In this document: positions 2,810-55,728 of the stretch, piece by piece
Layout: each line of letters starts with the position of its first letter
Position numbering within the stretch: the stretch's first letter is position 1
Source: Candidatus Methanogaster sp. UBA203
GTDB taxonomy: Archaea > Halobacteriota > Methanosarcinia > Methanosarcinales > Methanogasteraceae
Assembly: GCA_002503595.1 (NCBI GenBank)
Contig: DASC01000135.1
Span: 2,596-66,595 of the forward strand
Reading direction: 5' to 3'
DNA: 64,000 nt
The notes under the pieces: generated by a model
The model's database searches: none
What the model saw: only the letters and a program-made list of their open reading frames with translations
Told to the model about the DNA's origin: nothing
Position numbers and translations under genes: made by a program

Positions 2810-3003
2810 TGGGGGAAAAGATACTTGCAGATTATGACAGGGAAGCGGACGTTCTTTGTATAAATTTTACCTATCCGCCCGAAGCAGTAGAACATAATGA
2901 AGATGAGAGGGGGCTCATCAGGAATTGTAATGAGCGTGAAGGTGTCGTGGGGATAACAGTGATTTCAGCGAGTGGATTTGCGGAGAGTAGTGACAGAGGT
3001 TAA
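2806..3003 (+). CDS. DUF2283-like small protein (antitoxin-like, orphan)
   Basis: 65 aa. ADYDREADVLCINF ... GVVGITVISAS fits the DUF2283 pattern. The start overlaps the upstream stop (ATGA). No DUF4258-type partner is present. Confidence 0.45.
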   Translation: MMGEKILADYDREADVLCINFTYPPEAVEHNEDERGLIRNCNEREGVVGITVISASGFAESSDRG

Positions 3004-3004
3004 A

Positions 3005-4393
3005 ATGATGAGTGATAATATCTCGGAGGTCATCCCGGTAAAAAACGAGGAAGCGAAGATTATGCAGTGCCTTGAAGCGGTCTTCTCTCAATCCCTCAAG
3101 CCGCATGAGGTGCTCGTGGTCGATGGACATTCGACTGATCGGACGGTGGAGCGGGCGAGGGAGTTTCCGGCCAGGGTGGTTTATGAGGATTATGGAACAG
3201 TTGGTGGAGCGCGGCAGGTCGGGGTTTTGAGTGCAGAGAGTGGGATTGTGGCTTTTACGGATGCTGATTGCGTTCCTGAGAAAAATTGGTTAGAAGATGT
3301 CGTAAAGGAATTTGATGAGGGTATTGTCGGTGTGGGGTGTGGGATAAAAAATGATGATGACCTGGTAGCTATATCAGTAGTAGTTCCGGTATACAATGGT
3401 GAGAAAACGATAAAGAAGACAATAGAAGCGTTGCTATCGCAAAAAACAGAAAAAAAATACGAAATTATCATTGTCGACGACGGTTCTACAGATAATACCC
3501 CCAACATTATTAAAAAATATCCCATAAAAACAATCACTCAAAAAAATGCAGGGCCCGCAGCAGCGAGAAATATCGGTTGGAAAGCCTCGTCGGGAAAGAT
3601 AGTAGCATTTACAGACAGCGACTGTGTCCCCATTCCGGATTGGATCGAAGCAATAAGTAAACACTTCAATGACCCCGCTATAGGAGGAGTTGGCGGCACA
3701 TATAAGATGGAAAATATAGGAAACATTCTTGCAACCTATATCGGAGAAGATATAAAATTTAGGCATGACCGACTTGGAAAGGAAATAGAAGCAGTAGGAA
3801 CGTTCTCTGTCGCATTTCGGAAGAATTTACTCGAACGGGTTGGTGGATTTGATGAAACATATAAAAAGGCTACCGCGGAGGACTTTGATTTATGTTTTGC
3901 AATACGTAAAACAGGGCATAAAATAATATACGAGCCAAATGCGATTGTGGGTCATTATCACAAGGAAAGCTTTTTAAAATATATAAAGAGTCAGTTCTGG
4001 TTTTCAGTTTGGAGAATATATTTATATGATAAATATAAATGTATGGCAAAAGGTGATCGGTACACGCCAATAACAACATTAATCCAAGTACCGGTAACAT
4101 TGTTATTTTTATTGAGTTTAGTATTGGGTGTTTTTATCGAAAAATTATTTATAATATCGATATTTCTTGTAGGTGTTCTTCTTATGTTAACTATTCCATT
4201 TATAAGCTATGAGATACGAAAGAATCCATTGATTGCGGTAATAGGGGTATTTATGCAGTTTATTAGAAACATCATCTGGGCAGTTGGTTTTGTCGGTGGG
4301 TTGGTTAATTTGTTTTATTTAAAGTTTGAAAAATGCAAAAAAAGAAGACGTGGTAAAGAACATGTTATTAAGCTGGTGGATAGTACAACATGA
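3005..4393 (+). CDS. Family-2 glycosyltransferase: a truncated GT-A N-terminal half fused in frame to a complete GT2 with C-terminal TM helices
   Basis: There are two successive GT2 motif sets: VIPVKNEE..VVDGHSTDRT..FTDADC, then VVVPVYNGE..IVDDGSTDNT..FTDSDC..EDFDLC. The hydrophobic tail has 3-4 helices. The ATG at 3005 is preferred because it follows the upstream stop at 3001-3003. Confidence 0.8.
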   Translation: MMSDNISEVIPVKNEEAKIMQCLEAVFSQSLKPHEVLVVDGHSTDRTVERAREFPARVVYEDYGTVGGARQVGVLSAESGIVAFTDADCVPEKNWLEDVVKEFDEGIVGVGCGIKNDDDLVAISVVVPVYNGEKTIKKTIEALLSQKTEKKYEIIIVDDGSTDNTPNIIKKYPIKTITQKNAGPAAARNIGWKASSGKIVAFTDSDCVPIPDWIEAISKHFNDPAIGGVGGTYKMENIGNILATYIGEDIKFRHDRLGKEIEAVGTFSVAFRKNLLERVGGFDETYKKATAEDFDLCFAIRKTGHKIIYEPNAIVGHYHKESFLKYIKSQFWFSVWRIYLYDKYKCMAKGDRYTPITTLIQVPVTLLFLLSLVLGVFIEKLFIISIFLVGVLLMLTIPFISYEIRKNPLIAVIGVFMQFIRNIIWAVGFVGGLVNLFYLKFEKCKKRRRGKEHVIKLVDSTT

Positions 4394-4462
4394 GACTATG
4401 AAAATTATGATGGGTATAAATTGGAGGTTTTTGGTGATGGTAAATTTTGGGAGTGGAGTGCA

Positions 4463-5587
4463 ATGAACATTTGCATGCTATCCTCTGAATTCCCCCCCGA
4501 TCTCGGCGGTATAAGTACGTACGTCCATAATTTATCAAAAAAATTGATAGAACGGGGGCATACTGTCACAGTTATCACGCGGGGGACATACAGAAAAACA
4601 TATCAGGAAAAGATAGATGGTATCTCTGTACATCGTGTGCGGTTCATACCATCATATCCTTCTCCATTCAAGTTACATGGATTGTTCGTGAATAAATCAT
4701 TTAAGTTATTGGAACCAGATTTTGACGTAGTACACGTACATGGAACACTCGTGCCGGTCATCCATACATCATTGCCAGTCATATTTACCTCACATGGTAC
4801 TTCCAATAAGGATATTGACAATATGCCGATGAAAAGTTTTCACTTTTATGTTGTTAGTCTTATGCGCAGGCAATTATTTAATGCAGAAAAAACGATTGTA
4901 GGAAGTGCAGATGTAATTACTTCGGTGTCACATTCGTGTGCAAAAGAACTGAAAAAAGACCATGTAGTAAATAAAAAAATTACAGTTGTGAATAATGGTG
5001 TAGATAGTAACTTTTTCATTCCCATTGAAAATAATAAAAAAGAAAATTATATATTATATACTGGGAGATTGGAGACAAGAAAAGGATTGATTGATTTCAT
5101 TGAAAGTGCGAAATACGTATGTCGAAAATATGTTGATATTAAGTTTATCTTAACTGGTAAAGGCACGATTAAAAATTATCTGGAGCGAAGAATTGATAGT
5201 TTCGGTTTGAAAAAAAACTTCTGCTTTACCGGGTTTGTGGATAGGTCAATGCTTCTTGAATACTATCAAAATGCAGCTATTTATGTTCTCCCATCATATT
5301 ATGAAGGACTGCCCACAACTTTGCTCGAAGCGATGTCATGCGGAATACCCTCAATCGCGACAAATGTAGAGGGGAGTTCTGAAGTGATAATCGATGGTGA
5401 AACAGGTTTGTTAGTTCCTCCGAAAGATCCTGAGAAATTAGCAGAAGCAATAATAATGTTATTAGAGAATAAGGTGTTACGAAACAGATTGAAGATGAAC
5501 GCAAGAAAATATATTGTAGCTACTCATGATTGGGAGATTATAACAGACAGAATAGAAAAAGTGTATGAAAAATGTGTAACTAAATAG
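4463..5587 (+). CDS. GT-B glycosyltransferase (GT4/GT1 family)
   Basis: N-terminal SSEFPPDLGGISTYVHNL. The C-terminal EX7E motif is EGLPTTLLEAMSCGIPSIATNVEGSSEVI. The ATG at 4463 is preferred over the track's upstream alternative start at 4421. Confidence 0.8.
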   Translation: MNICMLSSEFPPDLGGISTYVHNLSKKLIERGHTVTVITRGTYRKTYQEKIDGISVHRVRFIPSYPSPFKLHGLFVNKSFKLLEPDFDVVHVHGTLVPVIHTSLPVIFTSHGTSNKDIDNMPMKSFHFYVVSLMRRQLFNAEKTIVGSADVITSVSHSCAKELKKDHVVNKKITVVNNGVDSNFFIPIENNKKENYILYTGRLETRKGLIDFIESAKYVCRKYVDIKFILTGKGTIKNYLERRIDSFGLKKNFCFTGFVDRSMLLEYYQNAAIYVLPSYYEGLPTTLLEAMSCGIPSIATNVEGSSEVIIDGETGLLVPPKDPEKLAEAIIMLLENKVLRNRLKMNARKYIVATHDWEIITDRIEKVYEKCVTK

Positions 5588-5648
5588 TAGTAAAAATATA
5601 ACATGAGCCGGATAATTTTGTCGCAAAATCTAAAAGAAGATCGTATCG

Positions 5649-7562
5649 ATGAGCATGTCCGGGTGGCGTAAAGTAGGTGATAAGATGGAATTCGCGAAGT
5701 TTGGTGGCGAGAACAGAATCATTAAAATCGTATCCACCATCGCTTTTATTTTTATCGCAATATCTTTAGATATAATTGCGAAAACTTCTCCAACTGTTGG
5801 CTACGAAGTATCAATTTATAACGCCTACCCCTCCTACTTTTGGTTTTTAGTTATAGCTAGTATTGCTTGTGGCATTGGGATACTGTTGTACCAGGCTTTT
5901 GCTCAAGAAAAATCCCGATGGTGGGTTCTTGGACTTGTGATAATTATCTTAGTCAACACCATTTTTCTGCTCATGCCTGAGTTTAGAGGGTATTCCTTCT
6001 ATGCGCGAGGGGAGGACACACTCACACACGCCGGATACATCAGAGATATTCTAAATACTGGGCATGTAGGTGAAAGCAATTACTATCCAATCGAGCACAT
6101 ATTGGGTACAAACTTAATCCAAGTATCTGGAATATCGCTAGAAGATGTTTCTGCTCTATTTTTCGTCCTTTTTTCTGGAATGTATATTATTACTATATAT
6201 CCTTTGGCCAAAAGCACTAGTAAGCACTCGGGTCAAGTTCTATTAATAGTTGCTTTCGCCTCACCTTTAATATACAGTTTTTTTCATGTAAACATTTCTC
6301 CCAATATTTTTTCTTTGTTTATGCTACCATGTTTGTTGTATTTTTATCATAAAAGAGAGTTAATCCCATCAAATCGCATGGAAAATACTATTGCGGTGCT
6401 TATATTGGCGTTTTGCATTGTTTTTTTCCATGCCGTTACCACACTCTTCACCATAATTGTTTTTTTTGTATTTGGGCTTGCTTATGCTCTGTACTCCAAT
6501 TTTATTGTCCGCAGACTATCTGAGCATAGGCAATATGGAATTGTCGGTAAGAATTTTCTTAGAATAACTTTTATCCTGTTTATAGCTTTTTTCATGTGGT
6601 ATTTCTCGTACTCATCTATCTGCAATAGTTTCAGAAGAGTTGCCGACTGGTTAATCTATCAGATTGGCACTCCTTTGTTCGATGCACAACTTGAAACATT
6701 GAGAGAAACTGGACCTACATGGTCTCAAACTTTTGAACTTTTTGTGAATAGGTATGGCGCTATTTTTTTATTGTTGCTACTTTCGAGTATATGTTGTATA
6801 TATGTGATTAGGAAAAGTTTGTCAAAAGCACATAATATAGGACCCATGATGTTTACATACGCAATTCAATTCACGATTGCTCTTTTCATTAGTGTTATAA
6901 TGCTATTTGGTTATTTTTTCGAATATAATCCCGTCAGAGTTTTTAGGCTTCCTTTACTAATGGGTACAATTCTTAGTGGGTTGGTGGTTTATGATTTCGT
7001 TAGCGGATATACTAGGAAGAAGTCTAATAAGAGAAACAAGTTGCGCCAAAGGTTATTCATAATAGTAATTTGGATGACCATAATGGTCATGGTTACGCTA
7101 AGTTTTGGGAGTGTTTATAATTCACCGAGAGTGTATCTGCCAAATTCTCAGACCACCTCAATGGACCTAGTTGGCACAGAATGGCTGGATAAATCGAAAA
7201 GTCCTGATATTCGCATAATTGTTAGTCGATGGTCAGCACATTCTCTGCACCGATTCGAAGATTATAATTTTGGAATAGATTCCTCCCCTACCGTCAAAGT
7301 AGGAATAATCCACGAATATCTTCCTTCGCACTTTGGTTATGGTGGGAATAGCTCAGTTGTAGAATCTTTAGGTTTTCGAGATATGTATGTAGTCATCTTC
7401 CAAGTAGATAAAGTAATAACGATGTTTGTCCCAGAGAATGTTGGATCAAATATAGATCAGTGGACGGAAGAAGATTTTGCCAAGCTAAAAGTCGATCCTA
7501 CTGCAGTACATGTCTATGCTAATGGTGAATTTGATGTGTGGGGGGTATATGGCGAATTTTGA
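5649..7562 (+). CDS. Large polytopic membrane protein with a soluble C-terminal domain (glycan polymerase or GT-C-like role inferred from context only)
   Basis: 637 aa. More than 10 hydrophobic segments are followed by a hydrophilic tail of about 170 aa. No AglB WWDYG motif was seen. It lies within the glycosyltransferase cluster. Confidence 0.6.
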   Translation: MSMSGWRKVGDKMEFAKFGGENRIIKIVSTIAFIFIAISLDIIAKTSPTVGYEVSIYNAYPSYFWFLVIASIACGIGILLYQAFAQEKSRWWVLGLVIIILVNTIFLLMPEFRGYSFYARGEDTLTHAGYIRDILNTGHVGESNYYPIEHILGTNLIQVSGISLEDVSALFFVLFSGMYIITIYPLAKSTSKHSGQVLLIVAFASPLIYSFFHVNISPNIFSLFMLPCLLYFYHKRELIPSNRMENTIAVLILAFCIVFFHAVTTLFTIIVFFVFGLAYALYSNFIVRRLSEHRQYGIVGKNFLRITFILFIAFFMWYFSYSSICNSFRRVADWLIYQIGTPLFDAQLETLRETGPTWSQTFELFVNRYGAIFLLLLLSSICCIYVIRKSLSKAHNIGPMMFTYAIQFTIALFISVIMLFGYFFEYNPVRVFRLPLLMGTILSGLVVYDFVSGYTRKKSNKRNKLRQRLFIIVIWMTIMVMVTLSFGSVYNSPRVYLPNSQTTSMDLVGTEWLDKSKSPDIRIIVSRWSAHSLHRFEDYNFGIDSSPTVKVGIIHEYLPSHFGYGGNSSVVESLGFRDMYVVIFQVDKVITMFVPENVGSNIDQWTEEDFAKLKVDPTAVHVYANGEFDVWGVYGEF

Positions 7563-7573
7563 TTAACCTATTC

Positions 7574-9019
7574 GTACGTGTTTAGCCGCTCAGCCTCGCC
7601 CTCATCATCTGGAGACTGTTGAATCCCTGCTGTGCCCACGTTGCCAGCACTGTCATGATCCGCTCGTGAATTGACGTCCCTTTTCTATTACGCAGTGTTC
7701 CCACGATCTTCCGCTGGACGACATGCTCAGCGATTTGAGCCCTTTCTGCTCTGTTATTGGTCGACTCCACGCCTGGATGAGTGACAAACGTGAACCAGTA
7801 ATCAAAGCCATTTTCAATCTTGCCGATGAGCTTTTCCACCTTCTCGCTTCCGTATTCTCTCTTGAGCCATCGTTTGAGCGTTGCTTCCGCATTATGTGAC
7901 AGCTTCTCCCGAGTTTCGGGAGGAGGATCATTCTCCAGCGCGTCAATCAGTTTTTCATGGAGTCTCCCCGAGTGCTCTGTGTAAAGGAACCGCCTCCGCA
8001 ATCTTCTCGGTGAGATCCTTTGATTCTCGAAGTAGATGTGCCCAGCAACGCTGGATACGGTTTGTAAATTTGGCGTACGGTTTCCAGCCGTCACACACGA
8101 TCATTCCCTTGAATCTCCTTGTCAGAACCTCTACCAGGACTTTTGTGCCCCGACTCTTCCGAATCACGACAAAAGTCTCTGCGGGGGTGGTGAATGCCCA
8201 TATCCAGTGTTTCTTTCCCTGAACTCCGATTGAAGTTTCGTCCACATGCAGAATCGGAGCGTTACGAACTCGTTCCAGAATTGCGTCATATTCCGATTGA
8301 ACCGCATCAGCAGCACGGCGAGTGAGATCGAGTATCGTAGCAGGACTGATGTCCAATCCATAGTGCCGTATCAGCGCGTTCCGGATCTTCCGGTGTGGCA
8401 GCCTATCTTCATATTTCAGCAGTGCCGCCTGAGCAATCGTGTTGTTACCGAATATACCTTCTTTTGGACAACTCGAATCGGTTGCAACGACTTCTTTCTG
8501 GCAGTGTGGGCAGGTGTAATGTGCAATATTGTATTCGGTGACGATAACAGGCTGTGGTTCCGGAATCTCCTCGATAACCTTCGTTTCCACGCTGAACGGC
8601 TCACCAAGCTCAGTTCCAAAGTACAGGACACCGATCTTTCGTGACCTCCACCTGTCTATCAGGCTTTGCAGGAGGTCTCGTCACACCCTTATGTCCTTTC
8701 TTCTGCCCCGGCTTCTTCCACCGCCTTTATCTGGATCTTTTTTGCGCTTGCCGCCACGCTTCAGACTTGGTGGGGTATGTGCGTTCTCATACATAGCCAG
8801 TTGGCAACGAGCTCCTTTATGCATACCTTAAGCGACTCATTCTCATGCTTAAGTTGGTCAATCACGTCTCGAAGTTGTTTGATGATCTCGTCCTTGTCCA
8901 TCGTCCTCTTAGAAGACTATTACAGTAACAATATAGAAGTTTTGTGGTCGAGGATGGGTTTTAGATCGATCTGGAAGAACAGTGTGATGGGTGGTTATGT
9001 GGGGGAGCTAAACACATAC
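7574..9019 (-). mobile_element. IS66-family insertion sequence (single-ORF, ISBst12-like size), decayed
   Basis: Imperfect terminal inverted repeats are gtacgtgtttagc (7574-7586) and gctaaacacatac (9007-9019). It encloses a broken IS66-type transposase. It is a GC-rich element inside AT-rich flanks. No clear target duplication was found. Confidence 0.65.
7582..8901 (-). pseudogene. IS66-family transposase, disrupted by at least three frame changes
   Basis: The pieces are MDKDEIIKQLRD.. (from 8901), YENAHTPPSLKRGGKRKK..GHKGVTRPPAKPD (another frame), ORF 7955-8590 (CPHCQKE..HVDETS..DGWKPY..QRCWAHLLR) and ORF 7582-8094 (ESTNNRAERA..). Confidence 0.75.
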
Positions 9020-9094
9020 CAGTAAGTTAAATACGACGGAATCCTATTAATTAAAAAGAAATTAGATGGACTTGTAGACGAGTTTGGTGATAAA

Positions 9095-10075
9095 ATGGTA
9101 AATAAAAATCTATTCGTGATAGGCAGTGAGCATCTAAGGAAATGGGAACTCAAGTCATTTCTATGCGGGTTTATCTTTTTTAGCATATCTAGGAGGAACT
9201 TATGTGTAGATAATTTAAGATACGTAATTGCAAAGATGCGCAATAAGGGGGTAGATTACACTAAAGTAAAAGTAAATGATAATTTAATGTATATAAATTT
9301 TAAGGATAATGGAATCTCTAAGGAACTTTATATCCACCGGAAAAGAGAGCATTTTTCAACTGAATTCATAAAAGAAATTATTAGCGAAGACGAAATCATA
9401 ATTGATATAGGAGCTAATATTGGATACTATGCCTTATTAGAGTCTCAATTGGCAAATAAGGGAATGGTGTATGGTGTAGAGCCCATACCTTCAAATATGA
9501 ATTTATTGAATAGAAATATAGAATTGAATAATCGCAAGAATTTTTCTTCTTTTCAATGTGCTATAAGTGATAAAAATGGTGAAGCGAAAATGTATGTGTA
9601 TGACAAATGTAATTGGTGTTCCTTCACAAAAGATCCAGGCGGTAATATAATAGATGAAATCGAAGTTCAAACAATGACGTTAGATAAGTTTGTGGAGTCT
9701 TGTGTCTGTCAAGATCCTACGTTCATTCGAATGGATTCTGAAGGACATGAATATCAGATAATCAAAGGTGCAGCTAACATTTTTAAAAAAAATAATCCAC
9801 TAAAATTATGTATAGAATTGCACCCCCACTTGATGCCAAGGAAAAACATGGAAGAACTGATTAACAATCTAAAACAAAGTGGTTTCAAAGTGATGGCAAT
9901 ATTTTTAGATTCAACCCCCTATAACTATAAAAATATTAATACAATAAATAGATTGTGTAGAGCAATGAAAATTCCTGAATTTGGGTTTGCAGGCAATAGT
10001 TACGAAGATATATACAAACTATTAAAAGAGAGATGCTACGCACCCATTGTTTTTTTTGAAAGAGGAAAAGCATAA
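9095..10075 (+). CDS. FkbM-family SAM-dependent methyltransferase
   Basis: IIDIGANIGYYAL (SAM motif I), VYGVEP and FQCAISDKNGEAKMYV are present. The true start may be the ATG at 9236. The gene is very AT-rich. Confidence 0.7.
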   Translation: MVNKNLFVIGSEHLRKWELKSFLCGFIFFSISRRNLCVDNLRYVIAKMRNKGVDYTKVKVNDNLMYINFKDNGISKELYIHRKREHFSTEFIKEIISEDEIIIDIGANIGYYALLESQLANKGMVYGVEPIPSNMNLLNRNIELNNRKNFSSFQCAISDKNGEAKMYVYDKCNWCSFTKDPGGNIIDEIEVQTMTLDKFVESCVCQDPTFIRMDSEGHEYQIIKGAANIFKKNNPLKLCIELHPHLMPRKNMEELINNLKQSGFKVMAIFLDSTPYNYKNINTINRLCRAMKIPEFGFAGNSYEDIYKLLKERCYAPIVFFERGKA

Positions 10076-14599: not shown

Positions 14600-17500
14600 T
14601 CACGGACTGATTTTATACACCAGTGTGTCATACGGATGTAATTCTATAAGTGCGATATACATTTTTCCATCTTCTGCACTCTGTGTAGATGTAATGTTCG
14701 TTACTAGTTCTTTGACTTCCACGCTAGTTCCATCAAAACCAAGTTTTGACAGGCCCACAGATAACACGCCACTTTCTGTCATGGAACTGCGGCTGGCAAC
14801 GGTATAGTATAAACACTCACTTAGATCACCATATCGTTCAAATTTTATATCGGGATTATCGCACGCCGCATACGGTATCGGCTCCCAGCCAGCAGCCGAT
14901 ATCTCTCTGATTATTGGAATGCATTTTTTGAATAGGTCGCGATCTCTTTCGTAGAATGTATCGTTATTCCAATATCGATTGTTTCCGTATATTTCTTCTG
15001 GTGACACAATACCGAAGGTTGGGAACATACCATAGAACATCTGCTCATCCATGTAATTTTCTACCTCATTATGAGTGATTGGGTCATCTCCATATTGTTC
15101 CCAATGTAATAAATTGGAATTTGTTTTTTGATAACTCATTGTGCGACGTAGCGACATATCACTATCACTTCTTTTTATATGCCAGACTTCACCGCCTAAT
15201 ACGTCAATTAGATGTTCATAATAAGAGTATGCGTTCGGGAATATGTTCGCATTGACAAGTTTGTCCATATTGGTCATGTTTTTACGTATCGATGCAAGAT
15301 ATTCATATTGAGATAATGTGCCCAACAACACAGGTTGCTTGGTATTATAACTGAATACTAGTGGATAATCGGTGTATTCCCAATGTTCTCTTCTATAGTT
15401 TTCAATTTCTGGCCAGCACCAATTACTGTGGAGTGAGTCCACGTAAAATCCACTAGATGGATAATCGCTTGCATTATATGTCGATTCAAAACTATGATTT
15501 TCAACTAAATTGATATCACTGTCACTTTCATGCAATTCAACATCATCAAACCAGAATGTGCCATACCCACTATAGATGTTAGCATATACACGTACATACG
15601 CGGTATCCGTGGTTGTTGTGAACGTTGCAGTTTTTTCTGTCCAGTTGGTTGTTCCGAAACCGAAGTCCAAATTTTTCTGTGCTATCCATGTTCCATTGCT
15701 GTCGTACTCTGCTGCACGCACACAAGGAGAATAAGTACCGCCACAGTTCAGTGTCTTTCCCCAAACTGAGAAATTGTATTTTGTCGATGGTGTAACCGAT
15801 ATGTGATCGGTTATTAAACTACCAGACATTACATCAAATGTTCCCAGTATCTCAATTTTGCCTGCGTAATTGCCACTGTGTGCAATGGTATCTATCGAGA
15901 GATTTGAACCAAATGACCAGTGATATGCATAAAAGCCGCTCTCGTTCGATCGATCGTATTCAGCATAACTGATCTCACATCGGTTTGGAGATGGAATGTC
16001 TGGATCGGGATTTTCAGGATAATTCTGTTGCCATGTACCATACTCATGCCAGCGGTAGGGGTCATCCAAATGGTGATTTTTATTCTTATCATACGGTGCG
16101 GAGTTCAACACTGCTTCTGCTGCAAACTTTGTTATTACCACGTCTCTCCACATTCCAATACCGTTGTTGTAATCATCCATCAGTGCTACAATCTTCTCGT
16201 CGTAACTCGGTTCTGTGGAATTATCTCCAAAACTCCGCCACCAACCCCATGGTTCAGTGTATTGCATCGGATATATTCCATGCTGATGATCATAAACACG
16301 TCTTGATATGGGATGATAATGCGAGTCATCAAACGCAAAACCAAAATCACTCGCATTCGGTATATCTGATGTGTCACGCCGCACCCACAACCCCTCCCAC
16401 TCATTCCTCTTCACAAAAAACTCCGGATACAGTTCATAATACTTCTTCGCGACCGCCCGAAACCCCCACTCTGGCCCGTCCACCTTGTACACAATAAACG
16501 TAAAGTTGGCATGTCCTGCCCCAATCTTATCAGTACAGTTCGCAAGCCCGAAGTCATACTCGATCGAATATCCTCCTGCACCAGTATCATACCCGATCCG
16601 GTAGATCCTCGGCACATCCATAGGAACAGCGAGACTCAAGCCCTGCGCATCTTCACCGACAAACGTGAACGAATATGTGTTCTGTGTCCGCATTTCCCCG
16701 ATCTTGTACACATTCTCATACCGCACCCCAGATCCAATCGCCCTGCTCTCCCTGATATAATCGCCCCACTGCCATCCAGTGGCGTCCACAGGCAGAACAT
16801 ATTGCACCTGAATCGCCCGGTCCACGCCTCTCAGATCCAGCACATCGCCATGCACCTCAATATACCGGTCTCTCGGTATGTAATCGAATCTGAATGCAAT
16901 ATCCGAACTGGTCACGTACTGCGTGATGCTACCATCATAGTTCTTCTCAACCGCACTCACAAGCGGGATCTTCCCGGTCCCACACATTCCAAGCGTCACA
17001 TCATCGACCCAGAACGTGCCGTAACTCTCCCAGATATTCGCATACACATAGAGTTTGCTGACATCAGAACTCGTGGTAAAACTGGTTTTCTTCTCCTCCC
17101 AGTCAGAATCCCTACCAAAAACTAAGTTGTGCTGTGTTATCCATCCGCCACTACCGTTAAGCTCCACCACACGGACTGTGGGCGAATAACTCCCATCAAC
17201 ACCGCTACTCTTACCCCGCGCTGAAAAGGTGTACACTGTACCCGGTTTCGCATCTATCAGGTCGGATTTCGGATAGCCGCTTTGCATATCTCCGGTTCCC
17301 GGGACATTGATCCGTATCGATCCCGGGCTATCATGTCCTTCTGACGCATCATAGACCACAGTCCCGGCGCGACTTACAAACGTCCAGTTCAGTGGCACAT
17401 CACCACTCACAGTCTCGAACCCGGGATTTGCAATAAGGTTCTCTGAGATGGTTGAAGATAATTCCCTGAAGGAAAAGCCACCCGGCACGGACAGCATAGG

Positions 17501-19885: not shown

Positions 19886-20072
19886 CGCCCCTTCGCGCAC
19901 TCTGCGGTTATATTCTGTGTTTGGTTACAGTAATGCCTGCCCTTCGGGCATGGCATCGATAGAATCGAATCCTTCTGGGATTCTATTATGCCTCATGTCC
20001 TGGATAGTTCCTGCATAGTGAAGTCCCACGATAGTGGTTTAGGTACCTGAGTAGTTACAAAAAAGCTTAACA

Positions 20073-20144
20073 AGCCTCGGGCGGGAATTGAACCCGCGAC
20101 CTCGTCCTTACCAAGGACGCGCTATACCGCTAAGCCACCGAGGC
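20073..20144 (-). tRNA. tRNA-Thr (anticodon GGU)
   Basis: Hand-folded cloverleaf: acceptor GCCTCGG/CCGAGGC, anticodon stem CGTCC/GGACG with loop TTGGTAA, T-arm GCGGG-TTCAATT-CCCGC, discriminator T. No encoded CCA. Confidence 0.85.
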
Positions 20145-52326: not shown

Positions 52327-52561
52327 ATCTGGAAATCGAATTTTTGAACATGCTCAGGGCTTGTTAGGAAATAACCTGGCGGAATTAGTGCTATTTGCCC
52401 AAACGCGTGAGTTCGTGACTATGAGCGCAAGCGAAGCAGAGCCGAAGGCATAAAATCGGCACCAAGGGATGGCTGCACCAATGCTGCGCATTCACGAATA
52501 AACGAATGTATGACAAAATATAAAAACTATAGAATAATTAAAAAATAAAAAATAAAATCGC

Positions 52562-53012: not shown

Positions 53013-53471
53013 ATGGTAAGTATCATGGAAATCTACCAGTTACTCCCGAAACTGAACTGTAAGGAGTGTGAAAAGCCCACGTGCATAGCATTCGCAAGTT
53101 CGCTTCTGTCAGGCGAATCCAAGATTGCTGATTGCCCGCCGCTCTACGAGAGCGGATACGAGAGCCAATTGCAGGAACTGCAATCGCTGCTTGCGCCAGT
53201 GAGCGGGGCTACCGAGACCGGCCTAGTTATCCATGAGGAGCTATGCTTCGGGTGCGGGAACTGCGTCGTTGCCTGCCCCGTAAACGTTGCCAATGATCCG
53301 CATGGTGCGGCTCTCGGGCTTGCGCCATCCAACGACAAGGTGATCCTCGAAGTGGCAGGCGGCATCGTCACTGCCAAGAATGTCGGTGAATGCAGGCGGT
53401 TCGGGCAGAATAAGATCCTGTGCGATGTCTGTATCGTAACCTGCCCATCAAAAGCGATCGAATTTGTGTAA
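53013..53471 (+). CDS. Fe-S protein: an N-terminal CdhE/RnfB-type Fe-S domain plus a 2x[4Fe-4S] ferredoxin domain
   Basis: The LPKLNCKECEKPTCIAFA motif and two ferredoxin motifs, CFGCGNCVVACP and CDVCIVTCP, are present. Confidence 0.7.
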   Translation: MVSIMEIYQLLPKLNCKECEKPTCIAFASSLLSGESKIADCPPLYESGYESQLQELQSLLAPVSGATETGLVIHEELCFGCGNCVVACPVNVANDPHGAALGLAPSNDKVILEVAGGIVTAKNVGECRRFGQNKILCDVCIVTCPSKAIEFV

Positions 53472-53484
53472 GGGAGCTTTTCAC

Positions 53485-53812
53485 CAAACTTTTCACAAAA
53501 GTTTGATCAAAAACTGCCCTTCGGGGTTATACACCCGTTTTTCACTCGCAAACTTTCCACAAAGCTTTGACGGTTCCGCTGGCGCTTCGCATTCAAAAAA
53601 TGGTCTCCGACCCGAAGGGCATTTCTTACTCGCAAACTTTTCACAAAAGTTTGATCAAAAACTGCCCTTCGGGGTTATACACCCGTTTTTCACTCGCAAA
53701 CTTTCCACAAAGCTTTGACGGTTCCGCTGGCGCTTCGCATTCAAAAAATGGTCTCCGACCCGAAGGGCAGTTTTTACTCGATTTTTTGTGAAAAAATCGT
53801 GTGAAAGAATCA
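53485..53812. repeat. Tandem repeat of 148-bp units (2 near-identical units plus a diverged hairpin tail), each unit made of two related half-units of about 74 bp
   Basis: caaacttttcacaaaagtttga starts at 53485 and again at 53633. The two units differ at only a few positions near 53620-53625. Perfect 9-bp/3-nt-loop hairpins are caaactttt-cac-aaaagtttg and cgatttttt-gtg-aaaaaatcg. Confidence 0.9.
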
Positions 53813-53814
53813 GC

Positions 53815-55728
53815 TCACGCCACCCGTACAGTCTCGAGGTTTCTCGGCACCTGAGTTTTGATGTGGTGTTTGTTATAAATCACACTTGCAAGACTCAGGC
53901 AGTTCCTCTCATCCCCATGCTCGGTCATCACAAGTTCCGGTTTCGGACGCATGTTCTTGATGTATTTTACCAGTTGGTTCCGGTCCGAATGCCCTGAAAA
54001 CCCATCGATCGTGCAGACCTCGAGTTTGATCTTGAGCAACTCGGACACGCCCCTCCTTGTTATCGGTATCTCGGTCCTCCCCTTCTGGATACGCTGTCCC
54101 ACAGTCCCCTCGGCTTGATACCCGACAAATACCAGAGTGCTCTTCTCATCCGGTGCAAATGCCTTGAGGTATTCCATGATCGGACCGCCGTTCATCATTC
54201 CCGAGGTCGAGATGATAATCGCGGGATCGATATTGCTCAAAAGATCCTCCCGCATCTTCTGCGAATCCACCTTGACGAAACAATCCGCAAGGAACGGATT
54301 CATCCCTTTGTGGAAGATCTGATTCCGCAGATCGCTGTTCAGATACTCAGGATGCGTGGTGTGGATCGCTGTTGCCTCCCAGATCATGCCGTCCAAATAT
54401 ATCGGAACCTGCTCGATCTTCTTCTGCCGCATCGCCTCTTCGAGAACCAGCATCACATCCTGACTTCGCCCGACCGCAAAAGCAGGGATCAGCACCTTGC
54501 CCCCGCGTTCGATAGTCCTCTTCACGATCTCTGATAGGTTCTTCTCTGCAACATTCCGCGGAGGCTGGAAATCATTCGGACCGCCATAAGTCGCCTCCAT
54601 GACCACGGTCTCCGCTCTCGGGAAATTGTTGATAGCACTGTCGAACAATCTCGTCTTTTCATACTTGAAATCGCCAGTAAAGACCACGTTGTGCAACCCA
54701 TCGCCGACGTGGAAGTGAGCGACCGCTGATCCGAGGATGTGCCCTGCATTGTGGAGTGTCAGTTTCATATCAGGCGCGATATCGGTAACGCTCCCATAAT
54801 CAAGAACAATTGTGTGTTTGAGCGCTTCCCTGACCATATCCGAGCTATACGGGATCCGCCTTCCTTCCTTGTTTGCGACATCGATGTAATCGATCTGCAG
54901 AAGCGCCATCAGATCGCGGGAGGGGGGTGTAGCATACACAGGACCACGGTACCCATACTTGAACAAGAGCGGCACAAGCCCGCAGTGGTCGAGATGCGCA
55001 TGTGTCACAACTACGCCATCGAGGTGTGTGATAGGGGAGACTTCAGGGATGTACAGGTATGGTGTGCTGCCGTTGTCATCAGCACCCACATTGATGCCGC
55101 AATCAATCAACACTCTCGTTTCCGGAGTTGACAGCAAGAAGCAACTCCGTCCAACCTCTCTACAACCTCCGAGTGCTGTTATGCGTATCCAGTTATCAGG
55201 AGATGTGATGCTGCGATGTATCTTCTCCCCGAGTTCCCGCAGGATCTTTTTGCGCTCGTCAAGACTCTCGCGCAGCACATGCCTGACGTTCTTTATCGTT
55301 GACGATTCGATCGGTGGGGTGCGCACGACCTTTGGCGTCCAGCCGATGTGTCTTGTGATCTCACGAAGCATTGATCCGTGCTGTCCGATAACGAGCCCTG
55401 GCTTCTCTGCCTCGATCGTAACCTCTCCAGTATCGCTATCAAAGCAGTAGTCGGTGATGCCAGCATCCGCCGGCGCTATCTTCTCGATTGCAGCAGTCGC
55501 ATCAGCAGGATCATACAGCACACTCTTGTCAGGACGTATCACGATCCGCTTTCGCACATCCTTCGCAATCGACCGCACGATCTCGCCGTTATCTGCCAGT
55601 TTCCGCGGCTCCTTCGTGTATATCACCAGTTCGGGACCCTCGAACTCCACGTCCGAGATCGTCACTCCGACCGGAAGATTCTTCCGTATCCGCTGCCTTA
55701 ATTCAGACAGTGTCTCTTCTATACCCAT
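53815..55728 (-). CDS. aCPSF1 / FttA: beta-CASP metallo-beta-lactamase ribonuclease with N-terminal KH domains
   Basis: 637 aa. It has N-terminal KH repeats, the motif [11 protein letters not shown] and beta-CASP motifs. Its ATG overlaps the psmB stop by 1 nt. Confidence 0.92.

Follow-up and report, generated by a model that had tools for sequence, protein, structure and literature searches.

Two convergent genes are separated by a 343-bp gap (53472-53814) in the window, that is, the whole 64,000-nucleotide stretch of DNA analysed here. The first gene (53013-53471, + strand) encodes a ferredoxin-like FeS protein of 152 aa with matches to Pfam FeS (PF04060, 8e-12) and to Fer4 families. The gene facing it (53815-55728, − strand) encodes a protein of 637 aa that combines KH_TffA (Pfam, 2e-28), metallo-beta-lactamase, beta-CASP (Pfam Beta-Casp, 7e-33) and RMMBL (8e-15) domains, which identifies it as aCPSF1/FttA. 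Tandem Repeats Finder detected in the gap a repeat of period 148 in 2.0 copies (53485-53780; 98% matches, score 578). A repeat search gave 99% identity between unit 1 (53485-53632) and unit 2 (53633-53780), which differ at only two positions (53622 T versus 53770 G, and 53625 C versus 53773 T). The near-perfect 148-bp tandem described in an earlier note on this DNA is thus real, and the hairpins, degenerate half-unit copies, inverted arms and terminal hairpin that it listed were all located as claimed.

Each unit opens with a perfect hairpin (HP1), CAAACTTTT-CAC-AAAAGTTTG (53485-53505 and 53633-53653); the hairpin pattern has six matches in the window against 0.01 expected by chance. A degenerate internal hairpin, HP2 (CAAACTTTCCACAAAGCTTTG; 53549-53569, with a second copy at 53697-53717), is homologous to HP1, and a terminal hairpin, CGATTTTTT-GTG-AAAAAATCG, lies at 53779-53799. 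Inverted arms accompany the hairpins, with AAAAACTGCCCTTCGGG (53509-53525 and 53657-53673) pairing with CCCGAAGGGCA(T/G)TT(C/T)TT (53611-53627 and 53759-53775). Hairpin, linker and arm together make up modules of two types at the outer ends of the array. Copy 1 of the type B module (CAAACTTTT-CAC-AAAAGTTTG, ATC, AAAAACTGCCCTTCGGG; 53485-53525, + strand; nhmmer module B, 4e-13) sits past the ferredoxin stop codon in the sense direction of that gene. The type A module (CGATTTTTT-CAC-AAAAAATCG, AGT, AAAAACTGCCCTTCGGG; 53759-53799, − strand; nhmmer module A, 2.6e-18) likewise sits past the aCPSF1 stop codon in the sense direction of aCPSF1. Since one module follows each stop codon in the sense direction of its gene, the modules form a long inverted repeat.

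A central spacer (53570-53610, second copy 53718-53758) is variable among orthologues. Over the unit junction, an inverted doublet composed of CCCGAAGGGCATTTCTT, ACTCG, the hairpin, ATC and AAAAACTGCCCTTCGGG (53611-53673) forms a 63-nt REPIN-like long hairpin and contains an internal-junction variant, AAGAAATG. The outer edges of the array are made of shorter repeats. On the left, the 12-nt half-hairpin repeat CTTTTCACCAAA (53477-53488, + strand) is a slippage-prone microsatellite with one extra copy in the window, five in L001 and two in L009 and L026; the 12-nt motif AAACTTTTCACC is present in one to five copies, depending on the assembly. On the right, 13-nt half-hairpin repeats (TGTGAAAAAATCG / TGTGAAAGAATC; 53787-53811) differ in sequence and copy number among lineages. 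Compared with shuffled sequence, the predicted folding of the array is strong on both strands (z −6.5 on the + strand and −6.4 on the − strand); it is also marked for a single unit (z −3.4/−2.7) and for the junction at 53600-53680 (−28.7 kcal/mol on the + strand and −32.2 kcal/mol on the − strand, z −5.3 and −6.1).

We scanned species-representative genomes with both arms for an orthologous element and found it in five MAGs (labelled ANME-2 cluster, Methanosarcinales or Methanobacteriota archaeon), in the same interval between the ferredoxin and aCPSF1 stop codons; a metagenome contig (L153) carries it at the same position. Copy structure varies. Most orthologous MAGs have a single unit of about 180-207 bp, and one unit is present in L009, L012, L019, L026 and L153, versus 2 x 148 bp in the window and in L001. 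In MAG275 (L023), the 64-nt left half-unit is present in tandem in four or more copies, an amplification that the homology of HP2 to HP1 accounts for, and the terminal hairpin beside aCPSF1 is missing. L027, with a ferredoxin-like protein of 83% identity, lacks the element, and only 3 bp separate its two stop codons. For the ferredoxin/aCPSF1 locus only this empty site was seen; a clean target duplication could not be made out there. The remaining relatives have other neighbour genes or an IS66-like insertion. In L028-L030 (GCA_002506015.1 and two metagenomes; ferredoxin identity 83%), an IS66-like transposase ORF at ~3000-3800, and not aCPSF1, follows the ferredoxin gene, and all three contigs stop at this ORF.

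The two units of the window have GGGG, GC and CCGCTGG states in common, and both pieces of MAG_107 have the alternatives. Units therefore co-vary within a genome and evolve in concert. This co-variation and the lineage-dependent structure of the array bear out the earlier suggestion of recent duplication or active homogenisation. The ORFs in the array, which according to the earlier note just translate the repeat, are not conserved: orthologues with one unit exist, and a GGG/GGGG indel shifts the frame. When 53472-53814 of the window was compared with positions 100-281 of L012 (ANME-2 MAG_107), the element was 97.8% identical, versus only 82-84% for the flanking third codon positions. Simple vertical descent does not explain the likeness of the two elements, which hints that the element region was recently exchanged or replaced.

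A scan of metagenome contigs with one 17-nt arm retrieved at least 118 stretches. Among the matches listed, at least 51 are full hairpin-linker-core modules, distributed over at least 42 distinct flank groups. The 21-nt A/T hairpin followed by AAAAACTGCCCTTCGGG recurs at 97-100% identity in about 42 unrelated contexts on Methanosarcinales/ANME-2-like metagenome contigs. A search for the repeat elsewhere, which the earlier note had proposed, thus finds its modules in metagenome contigs in dozens of unrelated contexts. A special link to aCPSF1 is not supported: the same modules adjoin about 42 unrelated gene contexts. Family copies are solitary, inverted or tandem; some lie between ABC-transporter genes and a few in frame within genes. 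Single elements measure 70-130 nt and are short imperfect palindromes, highly alike and mostly extragenic.

The modules are built from a 21-nt hairpin block with a 9-bp stem and a CAC/GTG loop and from a core block, A5-CTGCCC-TTC-GGG. Type A, CGATTTTTTCACAAAAAATCG-AGT-AAAAACTGCCCTTCGGG, corresponds to the right arm of the window on the minus strand, with 97-100% identity to it over 42-46 nt at about 40 loci among the matches listed. Type B has the layout of the left arm, and its dispersed copies, about eight, have AAAACTTTT/AAAAGTTTT stems. Type C presents the same hairpin in reverse, followed by CGAGT and then by AA(G/A)AA(A/C)TGCCC. Four stem variants, all perfectly paired, occur in the family (CGATTTTTT/AAAAAATCG, CAAACTTTT/AAAAGTTTG, AAAACTTTT/AAAAGTTTT and GATTTTTTT/AAAAAAATC, one of them with an extra base pair); the hairpin changes between subfamilies are compensatory in the predicted stems, and in one variant of the small hairpin CCU/AGG replaces CCC/GGG. 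Four unrelated loci (L034, L094, L108 and L125) contain longer segments (115-219 nt) of the 148-bp unit with 77-87% identity, and within these longer matches the central spacer is 77-87% identical to the centres of the composites found there. At other loci, AAGAAATGCCC usually accompanies the CAAACTTTT hairpin and AAAAACTGCCC the CGATTTTTT hairpin, so the two inter-unit 'mismatches' of the window represent two module types and not random drift. The junction form CGAGTAAGAAATGCCC usually partners the CAAACTTTT hairpin elsewhere (L032, L034, L086, L099, L108, L125 and L155).

The tetranucleotide composition of the contigs that carry the family is close to that of the window (r 0.80-0.95; chance hits, 0.28-0.71). 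One of these contigs, L125 (r 0.953), stems from a metagenome that also contains an exact-match aCPSF1 contig, and the helicase adjoining one copy had its best match in a Methanosarcinales archaeon. A second family locus was not found in the 64-kb window by a pattern search allowing 3 mismatches or by nhmmer module profiles, nor any family match in viral contigs (three patterns), plasmids or phages. A protein-database census through translated repeats gave just 23 weak matches, and pointed to the filled/empty pair of loci L155 and L157. Copy orientation was scored for clear cases only, stop-to-stop ORF context being too noisy in this GC range. Literature searches brought up neither a description of the family nor any account of REP-like elements from ANME or Methanosarcinales.

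Some copies within genes deserve separate mention. A type B copy lies in frame in a gene for an AshA-like SF2 helicase (..SATVGDP-EKLFTKVLSKTALRAG..) in L049 (~4000-4100) and L061 (~620-720); the nearest orthologues, P0121 and P0122 (82-83% identical), are without about 12-30 residues at the site of the copy. In L049, the 12-nt slippage is also seen inside the helicase gene. Fragments resembling UDP-glucose/GDP-mannose dehydrogenases (L065/L084/L093, L074, L052/L088) carry type A, B or C modules at almost one point, past ..LNEVGKVIKG.., with the middle of the gene seemingly missing; this site could be an insertion hotspot or one of repeated replacement. The type B copies of L041 and L074 have a common right flank and different left flanks, which reflects either recombination between copies or a chimeric assembly at the repeat.

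Two syntenic 20-kb loci with flanks ~95% identical, one filled (L155) and one empty (L157), differ by the insertion of a 219-bp composite. The 7-bp sequence TTTTCAT is present once at the empty locus and on both sides of the insertion in the filled one. Type A copies have AT[AG]AAAA on either side, the variable base of the two flanks being the same in 13 of 16 cases (p=0.04), and 70-nt type B copies are bounded by TCAAG/TCAAG (three copies) or TCAAC/TCAAC (one copy). The T[AG]A that precedes type A copies might have been simply the stop codon of the neighbouring gene, but this was rejected for most of them; as the real stop often lies 6-45 nt upstream, we read the motif as a target duplication. 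The DHH-domain/MC1 gene pair is filled in L032 and empty in L028. In the window, an A-rich stretch (TAAAAAATAAAAAATAAT; 52521-52557) lies just beyond the 3' end of the MC1 chromatin protein gene; similar A-rich stretches are found at that position in L028, L031 and L032, and the family cluster of L032 is inserted beside the one there. No terminal inverted repeats bound single elements of type A or type B; the long inverted repeat of the window consists of two whole modules in opposite orientation. By eye, which is a weak test, no transposase or parent insertion sequence was seen beside the copies in L108, L119, L125 and L147, and an IS608 TnpA (Y1) probe, with an approximate query sequence, had no tblastn match in the window or the loci (~0.9 Mb). 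The L155 and L157 loci contain a second family cluster, between DUF169 and KaiC-like ATPase genes (15866-16393 and 8971-9380, respectively), with flanks ~95% identical, a different module order and a 62-nt tandem in one genome only. The 62-nt tandem of L155 has the same internal-junction variant as the window, at an unrelated locus.

The arms of the element have remained unchanged while its centre has not. Across five orthologous copies, 38 nt (53633-53670 in the window) and 46 nt (53758-53803) are invariant; variable columns number 0 of 38 and 2 of 47 in the arms versus 23 of 87 in the centre (Fisher p=4.8e-6). The centre drifts about as fast as third codon positions: those of the flanking genes are only 82-90% identical, and the figure for the centre is 82-92% in most pairs. 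In the arms, not only stems and T-tracts but also loops and linkers (CAC, ATC, ACTCG) are unchanged. Invariant arms beside a drifting centre and flanks indicate either a sequence-specific constraint or continual conversion from other copies. That the arms have not changed while 10-18% of the flanking third codon positions have suggests a protein partner worth seeking.

The array is also rich in potential transcription stop signals. In the ferredoxin sense, T4 tracts lie at +7 and +19 and a T5 tract at +67 past the stop codon; in the aCPSF1 sense, T6 tracts lie at +19 and +67. The density of T4-T6 tracts in the array region is 4.5 times that of the window. In Methanococcus, two U4-tracts constitute the minimal efficient terminator that responds to and binds aCPSF1, and additional tracts strengthen termination (PMC8716108). 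Both genes flanking the array have this trait of aCPSF1 terminators, with at least two U4-tracts just downstream. It is plausible, as the earlier note had proposed, that both converging transcripts are terminated by the array, or insulated from each other by it. Because oligo-T tracts occur on both strands beside hairpins in every module, a bidirectional U-tract terminator or insulator would be the most likely role.

Several other explanations of the array have to be weighed. It might be an assembly artefact, the true locus having one unit or some other number. Three other contigs that encode an identical aCPSF1 do terminate within the repeat, and the contigs of MAG_107 disagree, one spanning a single unit and another ending in a second one. 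However, L001, a separate assembly, has the same two units of 148 bp as the window, with the same junction, and the junction variant AAGAAATG is a genuine form of the family present elsewhere; we consider an artefact highly improbable. Hardly more credible are two structured small RNA genes, with each unit being one of them; the earlier note had listed an sRNA pair among possible roles. The strong predicted folding of array and unit would fit such genes, as would a few G-U pairs in HP2 and L026 that are specific to the + strand. The two strands nevertheless fold equally well, as a DNA palindrome predicts, so that no RNA strand can be inferred. In addition, Rfam gave only chance-level matches, both for the whole window at the gathering threshold and for 53300-54000 at E<=10, a tRNA/tmRNA scan found nothing at the array locus, and consensus folds of the orthologues on both strands showed a single compensatory pair among 58-59 (covariation term 0.9/0). 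The centre changes as third codon positions do, no promoter was recognised, and copies of the family lie in frame within genes; on this evidence, small RNA genes are very unlikely.

An autoregulatory device, in which U-tracts and hairpins in the 3' UTR of aCPSF1 would form a cis-regulator specific to this locus, has in its favour the position of the array directly past the aCPSF1 stop, with U6 tracts 19 and 67 nt downstream, a right arm unchanged in five lineages and the binding of U-tract RNA by the KH domains of aCPSF1 (PMC8716108). Against it, dozens of unrelated genes have the identical module behind or beside them, one relative has aCPSF1 abutting the ferredoxin gene without the element, and the hairpin beside aCPSF1 has been lost in MAG275 (L023). 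The position beside aCPSF1 appears to be incidental, and there is very little probability that the array evolved as a regulator of this gene. A more serious candidate, although still a doubtful one, is a protein-binding array that would work at the DNA level, its invariant arms being bound or cleaved by a putative protein of the host or of the element, for instance an HUH/Y1 nuclease of the kind found in REP-RAYT systems or a chromatin protein, and termination being incidental. The invariance of loops and linkers, not of stems and T-tracts alone, points in this direction, as do the perfectly symmetric hairpin variants and the REPIN-like inverted doublets of cores. By contrast, no candidate protein was found beside the copies examined (by weak tests), the GTAG/CGTC tags of bacterial REP sequences are missing, and a target-site duplication was observed; such duplication is not a known feature of REPIN/RAYT or IS200/IS605 mobility. 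Protein binding is, in any case, compatible with the explanation that we prefer. Integron attC sites, origin recognition boxes, CRISPR, dif and IS200/IS605 omega-RNA were discarded since their defining motifs or contexts are missing.

With good confidence, we interpret the array as a locally amplified mosaic of an undescribed mobile palindromic repeat family of ANME-2-type Methanosarcinales that probably serves as a two-way terminator. The comparisons above demonstrate the insertion, the modular and dispersed nature of the mobile family, and its lineage-specific amplification and homogenisation. The element would have entered a gap of ~3 bp between the convergent stop codons in an ancestor common to one narrow clade. 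The 148-bp duplication would then have arisen when the hairpin modules, being repeated, underwent unequal recombination or replication slippage with one another, and the same process may have given rise to the 64-nt array of L023 and the 62-nt tandem of L155; gene conversion would keep the two units alike. The cluster would function as a bidirectional U-tract terminator or insulator for the converging transcripts. Where the genes lack the element they abut, and each of their transcripts has to terminate within the opposite gene; the insertion of a two-way terminator could thus bring an advantage. The invariant arms of hairpin and core might be recognised by a putative sequence-specific protein, or be continually converted from other copies. 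The earlier note had held that its reading would fall if the repeat proved to be a fragment of a known mobile element: it is, in substance, a piece of a mobile element, but of a family that is apparently undescribed. A bolder and rather unlikely possibility is that the family is an archaeal counterpart of persistent host-integrated repeats such as REPIN-RAYT, in which a putative dedicated nuclease or transposase would maintain the 38-46-nt arms, and that it has been co-opted as portable bidirectional terminator cassettes easing the collision of abutting convergent genes, that of the termination factor included.

The closest analogues in function and architecture are the bacterial REP/BIME/REPIN sequences and hairpin-forming MITEs such as Correia or ERIC. 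REP/BIME/REPIN sequences are short palindromes of high identity that occupy many sites, mostly outside genes; their arrangements include single copies, inverted doublets forming long hairpins and alternating mosaic clusters, often between convergent genes; they persist at orthologous sites and have been proposed to act in termination and mRNA stabilisation (PMC2817692, PMC3116915, PMC3733652). The family described here shares the extragenic palindromes and, in the doublet at 53611-53673, the whole array and the L155 cluster, the inverted or mosaic arrangement. In REP sequences, one end of the palindrome bears a conserved tag, GTAG or CGTC (PMC3733652); our modules are without it, their conserved linkers being ACTCG/CGAGT and ATC. 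Other differences from REP/REPIN are the archaeal host, the A/T-rich stems with a separate small GC hairpin, the 7-bp target duplication, the occurrence of some intragenic copies and the lack of any identified RAYT gene beside the copies examined.

Archaeal MITEs are known from Sulfolobus (SM1-4), Halobacterium and Haloquadratum, and prokaryotic MITEs may contain terminators or be translated inside genes (review PMC10969869). Like MITEs, the family is small, non-coding, multi-copy and mostly intergenic, with insertion polymorphism and target-site duplications. Unlike them, it has no terminal inverted repeats on its single modules and is highly modular in build, with tandem and nested copies; nor did a parent insertion sequence sharing its ends turn up beside the copies examined. 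The Correia elements of Neisseria and the ERIC and RU elements of enterobacteria, of about 70-150 bp, form long hairpins near gene ends and affect transcript ends; they have clear terminal inverted repeats, a TA duplication in the case of Correia, and bacterial hosts. Hairpins and gene-end sites are common to these elements and our family, as are occasional copies within genes, which for RU have been described inside ORFs (PMC2759123), but the sequences are unrelated. The copies in the AshA-like helicase genes (L049, L061) are comparable to the palindromic elements of Rickettsia, mobile palindromes that are tolerated in frame in protein-coding genes; the sequences are unrelated, and intragenic copies are here a minority. 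The Borg elements of Methanoperedens contain near-identical tandem units with fast copy-number turnover in ANME-related archaea; in contrast to them, our locus is chromosomal and lies among housekeeping genes, and its units are built from a dispersed family and not de novo.

For ANME-2-type archaea, the story of a 'termination-factor guard' gives way to undescribed modular hairpin repeats that move with target duplication, amplify locally, break metagenome assemblies and are sometimes translated in genes. In work on ANME genomes, these repeats account for contig breaks and spurious ORFs, and can serve as a marker for strain-level variation. As natural compact palindromic U-tract cassettes, they also offer material for tests of bidirectional termination in archaea. 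Their interest would be greater still if the invariant arms had a dedicated protein partner or a demonstrated terminator role.

Two other features of the window were noted. A lone perfect hairpin with a UUCG-type loop (TGCCCTTCGGGCA; 19929-19954) lies ~120 nt downstream of tRNA-Thr(GGU) (20073-20144, − strand); it was rejected as a family copy, its profile match to the core being weak (E 0.12), and is an unrelated simple hairpin. The region 4001-10000 has a GC content of 0.35-0.40, against about 0.49 overall, and may represent foreign or otherwise atypical DNA.
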